This document shows positions 40,249-62,157 of a stretch of DNA of 64,000 nucleotides, in pieces. Source of the DNA: Acidimicrobiia bacterium. GTDB taxonomy: Bacteria > Actinomycetota > Acidimicrobiia > Spongiisociales > UBA5794. The notes under the pieces were generated by a model. That model saw nothing but the letters and a program-made list of their open reading frames with translations, was not told where the DNA came from and searched no databases. Position numbers and translations under genes: made by a program. Position 1 is the stretch's first letter. Each line of letters starts with the position of its first letter. Location of the stretch: positions 883 through 64,882 of the forward strand of contig JASJCF010000011.1 in assembly GCA_030066265.1 (NCBI GenBank), read 5' to 3'.

Positions 40249-41397
40249 ATGAACCTCTCCCTGACCTCCCGAAACCCATACGACCCGCCCATCGAGTTCG
40301 TCGAGCGCAAAGGCATTGGTCACCCCGACACCATCTGCGACCGACTCGCCGAGGAATTGGCGTGCCAACTCGCCGACGAGTACCGAACCCACACCGGCGC
40401 CGTGCGCCACTTCAACGTGGACAAAGCGATCCTCGCCGCAGGCGCGGTGGACATCGGATTCGGTGGCGGCGAGCACATCAAGCCGTCCAAGCTCGTGCTC
40501 GTCGGCAAGGCGACCTATGGCTTCGATTGGCAACCCGACGTCGAATCGTTGGCCAAGCAGTACCACGCCCGCCTCCTCGAGTTGCTCCCCGACGCCACGC
40601 CCGAGGCATTCGATGTCGAGGTCTGGCTGAACCACTCGTCGTCCGATCTCGCTGCCGTGGTGCATGCCGAGGAGATCGCACCGCTTGCGAATGACACCTC
40701 GTTCGCCGCTGTCTCCGCTCCCAGATCGACGCTCGAGTCCATCGTGCACGACGTCGAGCGGCACCTGAACACCGACGGCTATCGCGCCGGGAACCCCATC
40801 GGGCGCGACATCAAGGTCATGGGTGCTCGGGAGGGGAACGACATCACCATCACGATCGCGTGCCCCGTCCTGGCAACCAAGGTCTCCAACCGGGGTGAGT
40901 ACGACGAGGTGGTCGCAAGGGTCCAGTCCGACGCCACCGAGGTGGCATCGGCCATCGCCGGGCGTCCCGTCACGGTTCGGGTCAACCAGGCGGACCAGGA
41001 GGATTCGGCCTACCTCACCCTCACCGGCACCTCCGCCGAGGCGGGTGACGACGGTCAGGTCGGTCGCGGGAACCGCTTCGGCGGGCTCATCACGCCATAT
41101 CGACCGATGAGTCTCGAGGCCGCTGCCGGGAAGAACCCCGCATCCCACGTCGGCAAGACCTATCACGCGATCGGCTACGACATCAGCCGGAGGCTGCTCG
41201 CCGAGACGGACACGTCGGACGTGACGCTGCGACTGCTGTCGTCGATCGGCCACCTCGTCACCGAGCCCCAAGCGGTCCACGTCGAAGTGGCGGGAACGGT
41301 CGATGAGCGTCAGGTGGAACAGATCAGCGCGGAGTGCTTCGATGACTGGGCCGCTGTCACGGATCGATTGATCGCAGGCGAGTACGAGCTCTTCTAG
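40249..41397 (+). CDS. Archaeal-type S-adenosylmethionine synthetase (MAT, PF01941-like)
   Basis: It is colinear with the archaeal MAT family: '[13 protein letters not shown]', '[13 protein letters not shown]', '[10 protein letters not shown]', and '[52 protein letters not shown]'. In Methanocaldococcus MAT, as recalled from memory, the corresponding motifs are ERKGLGHPDSICD ... [45 protein letters not shown]. It is not the bacterial MetK type. Confidence 0.8.
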
Positions 41398-59254: not shown

Positions 59255-59737
59255 ATGTCTCGCATCACCGCCGTTGCGGTCTTCGTGCTCGCCGTTGCAG
59301 CCTCTGCGTGCTCCGCTCCCCCGGCAGGGCCCCTTCCCGATGCGCCCACGCCCACCACGCTCGAGGAGATCGAAACCGAGCTCGCAGCGTCGACCACTCC
59401 CACGGTGGTGAACGTGTGGGCCTCGTGGTGCCTTCCGTGCCGGTCCGAGGCGCCGCTCATCGCCGATGCTGTTGCTGCACATCCGCAGGTGCGGTTCATC
59501 GGCCTCAACGTCCGAGACAGCCCCGGAGATGCACAGGCCTTCCTCGGTGAGTTCCTCGCCGACGTCGACATGGAGCACTTCGCCGATCGGGGTGGCCGCA
59601 TCCCCATCGAACTGGGCGCCACGTCGGGCGTTCCCGTCACCTTCTTCTACCGAGCGGGTGGAGATCAGGCGGCCGTCCATCTCGGCATCATCGACGAGCC
59701 CACCATGGCGAGGCTCCTCGACGAAATCGACCGCTGA
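59255..59737 (+). CDS. TlpA/ResA-like thiol-disulfide oxidoreductase lipoprotein (Cys form)
   Basis: Lipobox 'VAASAC', then thioredoxin fold with 'VWASWCLPCRSEAPL' (WCxxC). Confidence 0.7.
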   Translation: MSRITAVAVFVLAVAASACSAPPAGPLPDAPTPTTLEEIETELAASTTPTVVNVWASWCLPCRSEAPLIADAVAAHPQVRFIGLNVRDSPGDAQAFLGEFLADVDMEHFADRGGRIPIELGATSGVPVTFFYRAGGDQAAVHLGIIDEPTMARLLDEIDR

Positions 59738-60435
59738 TGGAGTTCTCCCTCCTCGGCGCCGCGGCCGTTGCGGTGTTTGCGTTCTGGGCCATGCTGCGAT
59801 GGGAGGCCAAGAGGGGGAACGCCGCAGGGTGTGCCGTCGATCTCTGGGACGCCGCACTGGTCTCGGCCGCCGGGGGGCTGCTCGTCGGTCGGCTGGTCGC
59901 GATGACCCAAGCCGGGATCAACCCGATCACCGACCCCGGACAGATCCTGCTGGTTCGCAGTGGCGTCTCCACGCCGGCCGCAGCGATTGCAACCCTGGTG
60001 ATCTTCACCTTCGTGGCGAGACGAGACCTCGTGACCGCCGCAGATGCCATCGCACCGGCTGCCCTGGCAGGCCTCGCAGGGTGGCATGCAGGCTGCATCG
60101 TGACCGGATCGTGCCTCGGCACGGAGAGCTCACTGCCGTGGGCACGAGCCCTCGAAGGCAGCGACGTCACCCGACATCCCGTCGAGCTCTACACCGCGGT
60201 CGGAATGGCGGCCGCCGCCATCCTGCTCGCCCTCTGGAAGGCGCACGGGAGGCCACCACCGGGCTCCGTGGCGGGAACGGCGCTCTTTGCGGCGGGAGCC
60301 ATGCGACTCGTCACCGAACCGATGCGCGTCTCTCTCGGCGGCGGTCCGGTGTGGCTCTACGGTGCGGCCATGATCGCAGGGGCGGCGATCACCGTCGGCA
60401 GCGTCGTGCGCCGCAGGAGATCGGTCAGGCGCTGA
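59737..60435 (+). CDS. Prolipoprotein diacylglyceryl transferase (Lgt)-like membrane protein
   Basis: Lgt-like landmarks 'DLWDAALVSAAGGLLVG', 'DAIAPAALAGLAGWHAG', and 'RHPVELYTAV' (E. coli Lgt has HPSQLYE). Divergent, so only moderate confidence. TGATG overlap with the upstream gene. Confidence 0.55.
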   Translation: MEFSLLGAAAVAVFAFWAMLRWEAKRGNAAGCAVDLWDAALVSAAGGLLVGRLVAMTQAGINPITDPGQILLVRSGVSTPAAAIATLVIFTFVARRDLVTAADAIAPAALAGLAGWHAGCIVTGSCLGTESSLPWARALEGSDVTRHPVELYTAVGMAAAAILLALWKAHGRPPPGSVAGTALFAAGAMRLVTEPMRVSLGGGPVWLYGAAMIAGAAITVGSVVRRRRSVRR

Positions 60436-61102
60436 GGTCGATCAGACGCTCGATGCGCTCTCGGAGGAACTCGTCGTTGTTCACGCCGAACCAACGATCG
60501 ACGATGACGCCTTGGGAGACGAGGATCGTCGCCGGCTGCCCGGGGACGCCGTAGAGGTCCCAGACGGAGTCATCGAGACCCCACTCGAGATTGTCCGAGA
60601 AGAGCGACTCTGCGGCCTGCGCCGTGGGATCGAGACCGCTCTTGCCGGCGACGGCGAGGAAGGTCACCTCATCCTGGTAGTTCGCTGCGACAGCGTCGAC
60701 GACGGGCAACTCCCGTCGGCATGAGCCTCACCACTCGGCCCAGAACACCATGAAGACCGGCTTCACCTCTTGTGACAGGGTGAAGGTCTCTGCACCGTCG
60801 GTGCCGAGGGCCAGTGTGAAGTCGGGCGCGGGATCGCCTTCAGGCGGTGGGGAAGTCGATTGCGGCGCTTCTGTGCTCTCGGGGGACGTCGACTCGGAGG
60901 TCGACGACCCATCGGTGGACGAGGAGGTGTCACTGTCGGCGCTTGCCGTGTCGTCGACGGCCGACGTGGTCGGCGCCGACGAAGCCGGGGAGGAGGTGTC
61001 GTCGGTGCTGGGCGACGAGCTACAGGCCGCAATCAGCAGCCCGAGGGCGACGAGAAGGATCAATGCGGATCGGCGCATACGGCAACGGTAGGCGTCCACC
61101 AC
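60425..61102 (-). CDS. TlpA-like thioredoxin lipoprotein with in-frame TGA at the first Cys of WCxxC: candidate selenocysteine protein (UGSC), alternatively a nonsense pseudogene
   Basis: The minus-strand frame encodes lipobox 'LLIAACSS' and a Ser/Thr-rich linker, then '...VKPVFMVFWAEW', then TGA (plus 60728-60730), then 'GSCRRELPVVDAVAANYQDEVTFLAVAG...LYGVPGQPATILVSQGVIVDRWFGV...'. This is one continuous thioredoxin fold in a single frame across the TGA. The track splits it into ORFs 60728..61102 and 60425..60709. Confidence 0.55.
60700..60719 (-). promoter_or_regulatory. SECIS-like hairpin 9 nt downstream of the in-frame UGA: cgacggg-AGUUG-cccgucg
   Basis: Read directly from the mRNA sense: 7-bp GC-rich stem and 5-nt loop containing GU. 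The loop starts about 16 nt after the UGA, within the geometric range described for bacterial SECIS elements. Confidence 0.35.
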
Positions 61103-61104
61103 GT

Positions 61105-62157
61105 CTACAGCGACGCATTTGCGAGCTGTTTGCTCTTCGTTAATGACCGTTCGAGGGCGGCTGCGGCCGCCCCCGATTCGATGGCTTCCTGCGCACGGGC
61201 GACGCCGTCGACGAAGCCCTCCGCCATACCGGCGAGCACGATCGCCGGTGCTGCGTTCATGGTGGCGGCATCGGCCTTCGGGCCGCCTTCGCCAGAGAGA
61301 ACAGCCTCGGTGATGGCGACGTTCTCGGCGGGACCGCCTCCCCGCAGATCGGCGACCGGAGCTCGGGCAACACCGAAGTCCTCAGGGGTGAATTCGGCCT
61401 CGGTGATCTCGCCGTCCACGAGGCGGTAGATCCGGCTCGGGCCGGAGATCGACAGCTCGTCGAGGCCCTCCTCGCCGAAGAAGACGAAGGCACGATCGAC
61501 TCCTCTGGCAGCGAGCACATCCACCATGAGCCGCGCCATCCGTCCGTCGGACACACCCACGCTCATCCTCGCTCGCGCCGGGTTGCACAGCGGACCGAGG
61601 AAGTTGAAGACGGTGCGCACGCCGAGCTCGCGTCGAACCGGAACGGCGTGGCGCATGGCAGGGTGGAAACGCGGGGCGAAGAAGAATCCGAAGCCCGTGT
61701 CCTCCACCATCTCGGCGACCTGGTCGGGCGTGAGATCGAGGTCGAATCCCAGCGCCTCCAACAGATCAGCCGAGCCGGTCTTCGACGACGCCGCCCGATT
61801 GCCGTGCTTGGCCACCTTCACGCCCGCCCCGGCCGCGATGAAGGCGGCGGTGGTCGAGATGTTGAAGGTTCCGTAGCCGTCGCCGCCCGTGCCGACGATA
61901 TCGACTGCGTCATCGATGTCCACGGTGACGGCAGCGGCCATCATGGCGTCGACCATGCCCGCCATCTCGTCGGCCGACTCACCCTTGGTCCGCAGCGACA
62001 CGATGAAGGCGGCGATCTGGGCGTCGGTGGCCTCGCCGGCCATGATCTCGGTCATCGCCGCCTCGGCTTCGGCTCGACGAAGGTCGTCACCCGCCATGAT
62101 CGTGTTCAGGGCATCGGCCCAGGAGTATCCGCTCATGGTGGCGACGATACTGCGCAT
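61105..62157 (-). CDS. trpD: Anthranilate phosphoribosyltransferase
   Basis: 'VDIVGTGGDGYGTFNISTTAAFIAAGAGVKVAKHGNRAASSKTGSADLLEALG' is the TrpD signature. The start may be ATG 62136 (MSGYSW...). Confidence 0.9.
   Translation of the reverse strand: MRSIVATMSGYSWADALNTIMAGDDLRRAEAEAAMTEIMAGEATDAQIAAFIVSLRTKGESADEMAGMVDAMMAAAVTVDIDDAVDIVGTGGDGYGTFNISTTAAFIAAGAGVKVAKHGNRAASSKTGSADLLEALGFDLDLTPDQVAEMVEDTGFGFFFAPRFHPAMRHAVPVRRELGVRTVFNFLGPLCNPARARMSVGVSDGRMARLMVDVLAARGVDRAFVFFGEEGLDELSISGPSRIYRLVDGEITEAEFTPEDFGVARAPVADLRGGGPAENVAITEAVLSGEGGPKADAATMNAAPAIVLAGMAEGFVDGVARAQEAIESGAAAAALERSLTKSKQLANASL

Follow-up and report, generated by a model that had tools for sequence, protein, structure and literature searches.

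Is the TGA that interrupts a thioredoxin-like gene of an Acidimicrobiia bacterium (assembly GCA_030066265.1, contig JASJCF010000011.1) a stop, a lesion or a codon for selenocysteine (Sec)? The gene lies on the minus strand of the 64,000-nucleotide stretch of DNA analysed here (hereafter the window), where an earlier note, working from the letters alone, had seen a candidate Sec-containing, TlpA-like lipoprotein. Comparison with relatives indicates that the apparent stop is almost certainly a conserved Sec codon with its own hairpin signal, and not the mark of a broken gene. The product is very probably a membrane-anchored extracytoplasmic thiol–disulfide oxidoreductase of the TlpA/ResA/DsbE type, with a predicted Sec as the attacking residue of its active site (W-U-G-S-C).

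The interrupted frame and its product

Read directly, the minus-strand frame runs VVDAYRCRMRRSALILLVALGLLIAAC...KPVFMVFWAEW, meets TGA at 60730..60728 and resumes as GSCRRELPVVDAVAANYQDEVTFLAVAG..., staying open for 100 codons until a final stop (TGA 60427..60425). The probable start is ATG 61078, giving MRRSALILLVALGLLIAAC, and homologues likewise begin MRR...; the frame itself opens at GTG 61102, an alternative start. A Ser/Thr/Asp/Pro-rich linker and then ...APDFTLALGTDGAETFTLSQEVKPVFMVFWAEW precede the in-frame TGA. The lipobox LLIAAC, the TGA following FWAEW and the frame continuing beyond it all stand as the earlier note had them. The parts of the gene, including two hairpins, the first of which is considered below as a candidate Sec insertion sequence (SECIS) element, are as follows.

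60425..61078, minus strand: complete coding sequence of the candidate TlpA-like seleno-lipoprotein, 217 codons including the Sec codon (from the frame and from Pfam matches on the read-through product)
61022..61078, minus strand: signal peptide with lipobox L-I-A-A-C; codon of the lipidated Cys19 at 61024..61022 (read from the sequence)
60833..61021, minus strand: low-complexity Ser/Thr/Asp/Pro-rich linker, residues 20–82, between the lipid anchor and the catalytic domain
60428..60832, minus strand: thioredoxin-fold (TlpA/ResA/DsbE-like) domain, residues 83–217 (from Pfam and the DsbF alignment)
60719..60733, minus strand: active-site motif W-U-G-S-C (TGG TGA GGC TCA TGC), which aligns with the W-C-P-x-C of Cys homologues
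60728..60730, minus strand: in-frame TGA, proposed Sec codon, residue 117 (same codon TGA in the relatives L001, L002 and L214 and in 48 distinct metagenomic sequences)
60700..60718, minus strand: SECIS-type hairpin CGACGGG-AGUUG-CCCGUCG, loop 60711..60707 (from comparison with relatives)
60683..60695, minus strand: second, weaker candidate hairpin CGCUG-UCG-CAGCG (in the minimum free energy (MFE) fold of the window sequence)

The read-through product matches three Pfam families above their cut-offs: PF00085 Thioredoxin (37.5 bits), PF08534 Redoxin (36.2 bits) and PF00578 AhpC-TSA (36.1 bits). The last match covers residues 81–192 and therefore runs across the TGA at residue 117. PF13098 stays under its cut-off on the same protein (18 vs 27 bits). 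The closest solved full-length relative is Mycobacterium tuberculosis DsbF (3IOS), aligned over the full domain with an E value of 8e-12; DsbE/MPT53 (1LU4) was also matched. Invariant residues in our alignment (A1) include W116, C120 and P182, with C117 nearly invariant in the Cys homologues; P182 probably sits at the position of the fold's cis-Pro loop. Like exported and anchored TlpA/ResA/DsbE-like proteins, the product has a signal peptide and a lipobox, both judged by eye and conserved in relatives: a lipobox-like [AG][AGS]C is present in 11/11 homologues that end at FWAEW. The linker (residues 20–82) varies among homologues in length and sequence. On these sequence matches, the product is a thioredoxin-fold protein of the TlpA/ResA/DsbE type with a lipoprotein signal.

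More specific assignments fail. The protein is not CcmG, since the model for CcmG/DsbE of System I (TIGR00385) scores 28.9 bits against a cut-off of 123; the window also lacks ccm genes. Among NCBIfam selenoprotein models, NF041057 gives 26.2 bits (cut-off 190) and NF041054 gives 21.7 bits (cut-off 300), scores so far under the cut-offs that the protein belongs to neither family, and no selenoprotein-specific model reaches its cut-off.

The downstream codons and the hairpin

Searching protein databases with the read-through sequence, Cys replacing the stop, returned 27 full-length homologues (179–215 residues) with W-C-P-x-C and the Cys in the same column, several of them named as TlpA family proteins of Acidimicrobiia metagenome-assembled genomes. 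It also returned 11 divergent proteins of 120–161 residues that end exactly at ...FWAEW. At the DNA level, the same codon is TGA in L001 (GCA_964600365.1, 114 kb) and L002 (ERZ25072999, 270 kb), both of which have a C-terminal half in frame after the TGA, diverged and without frameshift. A further relative, L214 (on a 2.09-Mb contig; TrpD 74% identical, gene order as in the window), reads W-TGA-T-T-C; the 2.09-Mb contig ERZ25039600 contig_8800 carries the same locus.

Scanning metagenome contigs for F-W-A-E-W-TGA-G-x-C matched at least 120 contigs, about half of those listed belonging to this family. De-duplication left at least 48 distinct family sequences with TGA, and every complete one has 98–104 open codons past it. 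Their C-terminal halves have diverged to 45–60% identity, with no frameshift or stop in any of the 48. A rule that Gly always follows Sec, suggested by these matches, had to be dropped as an artefact of the search pattern, because L214 reads U-T-T-C. A scan of genome collections with the generic pattern FWAEWC[PG]xC gave ordinary thioredoxins from unrelated phyla (L003–L082) and was set aside. One Joint Genome Institute (JGI) protein, P0001, reads W-W-G-S-C at the motif (WAEW-W-GSC), as TGA translated as Trp would give; its contig was presumably called with a genetic code in which TGA is Trp.

Selection on the codons past the TGA is strong. The ratio of nonsynonymous to synonymous substitution rates (dN/dS; Nei–Gojobori, downstream codons) has a median of 0.15 over 127 pairs, and L089 and L098 encode identical downstream peptides at a synonymous difference (pS) of 0.26. 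Judged from this purifying selection, the half downstream of the TGA is translated. The orthologue comparison that the earlier note had called for thus gives some forms with Cys and many with TGA and an intact, selected downstream half; the absence of decay in these codons favours Sec.

If the TGA is read as Sec, a signal for it should be sought in the RNA just downstream. Published constraints for bacterial SECIS elements are a loop of 3–9 nt, a stem of 4–16 bp, a G in the first two loop positions, 16–37 nt between UGA and loop, and an MFE of −7.5 kcal/mol or lower (PMC13188914). The hairpin that the earlier note pointed out is present as it described, starting 9 nt past the UGA, with 7 bp in the stem, 5 nt in the loop and 16 nt between UGA and loop. 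With G at loop position 2, followed by U, and about −12.8 kcal/mol, it satisfies every one of these constraints.

All 48 TGA forms keep 5–9 contiguous pairs at this position (mode 7). Their loops are mostly of 5 nt, a minority having 4 nt with the register shifted by one base. Several pairs have changed on both sides. In L113, a G-C pair has become A-U (CGG/CCC to CAG/CCU); in six sequences, the G-C pair that joins position 2 of the preceding codon to position 3 of a Val codon has become A-U or C-G; in the shifted register, C-G (CGG/CCG, five sequences) stands against G-C (GGG/CCC, two sequences). Pairing cells in the named structure amount to 78.5%, compared with 74.9% after shuffling, and 0/500 shuffles reach the observed pairing or covariation; sliding the partners by 1–3 columns lowers pairing to 33–55%.

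Codon choice within the hairpin departs strongly, and in the direction of pairing, from that elsewhere in the same genes. Arg is CGG in 44/44 cases (31% elsewhere), Pro is CCC in 41/47 (37%) and Leu is UUG in 25/47 (9%), with Leu CUG at 0/47 (34%). The mean MFE is −11.4 kcal/mol as observed and −6.9 kcal/mol when synonymous codons are resampled. The hairpin is kept more strictly than the encoded peptide alone would demand. Among Cys-form controls, 6/7 have three pairs or fewer at the hairpin site; one of the Cys forms, L209, encodes the same RRELPVVD peptide through CGC CGC GAG CTC CCG GTG GTG.

Given the 26 sequences with an AGUUG loop, the window included, RNAalifold recovers the hairpin unprompted, with no broken pairs and two compensatory pairs. 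The other 22 sequences yield a second hairpin, C-GAUGC-[AG]GU[UC]-GCAUC-G, 35 nt past the UGA, one pair of which shows a compensatory change from U-A to C-G. In each of the 48 sequences, a hairpin 16 or 35 nt from the UGA (or both) has G among its first two loop nucleotides; none lacks such a hairpin at both sites. The carriers of the second hairpin (22/48; for example, L136, L142 and L198) are exactly the members whose first loop lacks GUU (alignments A2/A5, columns 39–54). The GU-loop signal seems to have shifted between the two hairpins. The weaker hairpin of the window at 60683..60695 shows no conservation within the window's own subgroup, the other subgroup having a different second hairpin there. 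Taken across relatives, then, the first hairpin is by sequence comparison conserved, covarying and linked to the TGA forms: the conservation check suggested by the earlier note finds it retained, with compensatory changes, in the taxa that have TGA and absent from most Cys forms.

Selenocysteine and its rivals

Several results weigh against this interpretation. Neither the 64-kb window nor the lineage loci examined contain selA, selB, selD or tRNA-Sec: ARAGORN and Rfam found no tRNA and no RNA family in the window, ARAGORN found no tRNA-Sec in 42 loci, and Escherichia coli SelA, SelB and SelD, run by tblastn on the window and on all loci, matched only unrelated loci. On the side of Sec, the lineage is Acidimicrobiia, and the genes selA/B/C/D are reported throughout the Acidimicrobiia genus Actinomarina (bioRxiv 10.64898/2026.04.03.716425). 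The metagenomic sample is biased because the scan pattern demanded FWAEW-TGA-GG. By itself, the window hairpin is no more stable than chance (z = −0.60; 54/200 shuffles fold equally well) in a sequence of 67% G+C, and so has significance only through comparison with relatives; there, in turn, the shuffle statistics overstate significance, since the sequences are related and not independent. The Cys-form DNA controls number seven, and one Cys form, L212 (P0004), retains a 6-bp hairpin. RNAalifold applied to the pooled 48-sequence alignment gave a weak, unrelated structure and did not recover the hairpin, a failure due to its two registers that was resolved by splitting the sequences by loop type. 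The hairpin codons of L212 are those typical of TGA forms (AAG CGG GAG CTT CCC GTG), and a recent replacement of Sec by Cys would fit.

How far do other explanations account for the same data? The earlier note's own alternative was a pseudogene, truncated in this strain by a single TGC/TGT-to-TGA nonsense mutation. Changing one base of a Cys codon would suffice, and public gene callers do truncate the open reading frame (ORF) at the TGA. Yet the same TGA recurs in at least 48 distinct sequences whose downstream halves, at 45–60% identity and a dN/dS of about 0.15, contain no frameshift or stop, and the hairpin carries compensatory changes specific to TGA forms; a broken gene is scarcely credible, and the comparative data exclude the single mutation. 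It is also highly improbable that the UGA is a real stop, giving two polypeptides or an N-terminal fragment only, or is passed by low-level near-cognate read-through, for example with Trp. An in-frame TTG 7 codons past the TGA in the window (ORF 60425..60709) could restart translation, and JGI rendered the TGA of P0001 as Trp. In 22/48 relatives, a CUN Leu codon stands in place of that TTG, so no restart codon is conserved and a two-piece protein is disfavoured; the break would moreover fall at the active site and leave the thioredoxin fold in two parts. With Trp as the nucleophile, the CxxC chemistry would be lost, although selection still acts on the partner Cys and on the remainder of the fold. 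TGA is a normal stop in this genome: it ends 37/47 window genes and also terminates this one, so it is not reassigned throughout the genome.

A subtler rival keeps the recoding and changes the residue. A Cys-charged tRNA(Sec)-like tRNA (tRNA-ReC, or selC*) could insert Cys at the UGA through SelB and the same hairpin. Such a mechanism has been described (Vargas-Rodriguez et al. 2018, as cited in PMC13582414) and would give identical sequence signatures: a conserved UGA, a SECIS and downstream selection. The citing paper reports tRNA-ReC to be uncommon and usually found alongside canonical tRNA-Sec. Keeping a UGA and a hairpin merely for Cys would also be hard to explain, since TGC works in sister lineages, and we regard Cys insertion as very unlikely. 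We infer instead that SelB delivers Sec as the residue inserted here.

For Sec insertion we propose the following course. The hairpin 9 nt past the UGA (loop AGUUG) would act as a bacterial SECIS during translation; SelB with Sec-tRNA(Sec) would bind it and deliver Sec to the UGA in competition with release factor 2, and the ribosome would then finish the second half of the thioredoxin fold. The product would be exported, lipidated at Cys19 and tethered to the outer face of the membrane by its long flexible linker. There, the Sec/Cys pair would cycle between selenol/thiol and selenylsulfide, reducing or exchanging disulfides of exported proteins. ResA and TlpA act reductively, and an oxidising role is reported for DsbE/DsbF. 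With Cys relatives that differ in physiological direction, the direction of electron flow is not readable from homology; reductive flow is our best guess, at about even chances. A link to the maturation of cytochrome c or copper centres is possible, because a ccm operon adjoins the gene in relatives.

Neighbourhood, known systems and the wider family

The genes next to the candidate are those that the earlier note had listed:

61105..62157, minus strand: trpD, directly upstream and co-directional, with a 26-nt gap to the ATG (from Pfam)
59737..60435, plus strand: Lgt-family gene, convergent with the candidate selenoprotein gene and sharing 11 nt with its 3' end (Pfam PF01790, 65 bits)
59255..59737, plus strand: Cys thioredoxin-like paralogue (WCLPC), upstream of the Lgt-family gene

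The short gap and shared direction make co-transcription with trpD likely, and trpD also adjoins the TlpA-like gene in L001, L002, L205, L207, L208, L212 and L214, the TlpA-like gene always coming after it. Sec and Cys forms share the gene order AIG2-like, WhiB, (acyl-CoA dehydrogenase), trpD, TlpA-like gene; WhiB is present in the window by Pfam, and the named TrpD and TlpA relatives are Acidimicrobiia. Many relatives (the window was compared with L001, L002, L207, L208 and L209) continue with a convergent ccmG-like/ccmH/F/E/C/B/A operon, a complete ccmA–H set that includes a separate CcmG-like gene, followed by the Lgt-family and thioredoxin-like genes. The ccm block is missing in the window and in L214, where the Lgt pair abuts the gene; no ccm gene appeared among the window genes scanned with Pfam. 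The Redoxin–Lgt pair is kept in L002, L207, L208 and L214. The Lgt-family gene scores far under the NCBIfam Lgt equivalog cut-offs (31 vs 334 bits) and may not be the housekeeping Lgt but a specialised paralogue. A thioredoxin-like gene accompanies it in every case, and P0047 fuses LGT and thioredoxin-type Pfam domains in one protein.

Elsewhere in the window, two scans for other genes with in-frame TGA, based on G+C at third codon positions, gave nothing beyond antisense frames or adjacent genes, and were so coarse that they missed even the true case. The split TauE ORFs of L208 and L214 were weighed as a second selenoprotein and rejected, because their two halves overlap out of frame. At 40249..41397 (plus strand), the window encodes an S-adenosylmethionine synthetase of the archaeal type (PF01941, 355 bits), not the usual bacterial MetK.

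How new is such a protein? The earlier note thought that it would be unusual, which was overstated: TlpA-like UxxC selenoproteins and thioredoxin-like selenolipoproteins are already catalogued (PMC1088965; PMC13188914; NF041057). 'Thiol-disulfide isomerase-like protein' selenoproteins (TlpA-like, cd02966, UxxC) go back to a prediction from the Sargasso Sea metagenome (PMC1088965; Table 1 of PMC13188914), and catalogues since 2005 have included UxxC selenoproteins of the TlpA-like, Prx-like and thiol:disulfide interchange folds (PMC1088965; PMC13188914). The present clade shares with the Sargasso family a TlpA-like fold, Sec first in UxxC, widespread Cys homologues and a prediction that rests on a conserved TGA plus a downstream hairpin. 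Compared by description, it differs in consisting of lipoproteins, in belonging to Acidimicrobiia and in its fixed trpD/ccm synteny; the databases searched contain its TGA forms only as truncated ORFs. With the Prx-like and thiol:disulfide interchange selenoproteins (PF00578 and PF13098), families defined on Deltaproteobacteria-type sequences (PMC13188914), it shares UxxC in an AhpC-TSA/Redoxin-type domain. The Rcas_1661 family (NF041057) is a precedent for lipoproteins among thioredoxin-like selenoproteins, and the ResA-like WAxxUGC family (NF041054) for the WAxxU-G motif, although the latter has U-G-C (UxC) in about 350 residues where the window protein has U-G-S-C in 217.

Mycobacterial DsbF (3IOS) and DsbE/MPT53 (1LU4), Bradyrhizobium TlpA and Bacillus ResA share the extracytoplasmic CcmG/TlpA fold and the W-C-x-x-C motif. 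All of these use Cys, whereas the window protein is predicted to use Sec. Its hairpin resembles the E. coli fdhF SECIS in lying inside the coding sequence just past the UGA, with G-U in a small apical loop some 20 nt on: the G and U are at +21/+22 here and at +23/+24 in fdhF. It differs from fdhF in having no evident bulged U, a shorter stem of 7 bp and the loop AGUUG instead of GGUC, and in that one subgroup of the window family has a GU-loop hairpin 35 nt downstream.

The pattern FWAEW-TGA-GxC (L083–L202) also catches other apparent selenoprotein families, with frames open past the TGA (for example, L129, L130, L139, L143, L122 and L186). One group consists of small thioredoxins, DFWAEW-U-GGC..APV.EQ, with 74–78 codons past U; another is TlpA/AhpC-like, GKVVVLDFWAEW-U-G[GAP]C[MR]AM.PHER; a third reads KKVLEFWAEW-U-GPCKTFAPVF; and a fourth comprises long proteins with 238–294 codons past U.

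Within the window family, Cys forms fall into at least four clades nested among Sec forms in a rough neighbour-joining tree (active-site columns masked, pattern-biased sample). This nesting suggests repeated exchange of Sec and Cys. Putting the observations together, we tentatively consider, at somewhat less than even chances, that the gene represents an undescribed, lineage-wide family of Acidimicrobiia seleno-lipoproteins from soils and sediments, with three features. Sec may be the older state, replaced independently by Cys (with C-P-x-C) in at least four sub-lineages. The SelB-binding GU-loop may have moved, in different sub-lineages, between hairpins at 16 and 35 nt past the UGA, the first hairpin always being kept, in two registers. 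And the family may supply selenium redox chemistry to the cell envelope, beside the genes for cytochrome c maturation.

The gene is not annotated as a selenoprotein and is currently mis-annotated, although its TlpA-like UxxC class is already known from metagenomes; in the protein search, all TGA forms are split or cut short at FWAEW, and the family is covered by no NCBIfam selenoprotein model. The known picture of how Sec is encoded is unchanged. Recognising the family would set right the annotation of a gene that is common among Acidimicrobiia of soil, sediment and marine metagenomes, and would give a class with barely described selenium use a selenoprotein located in the envelope. Its closely related series of Sec and Cys forms could be used to study the retention and replacement of Sec, and the evolution of a SECIS inside coding sequence.

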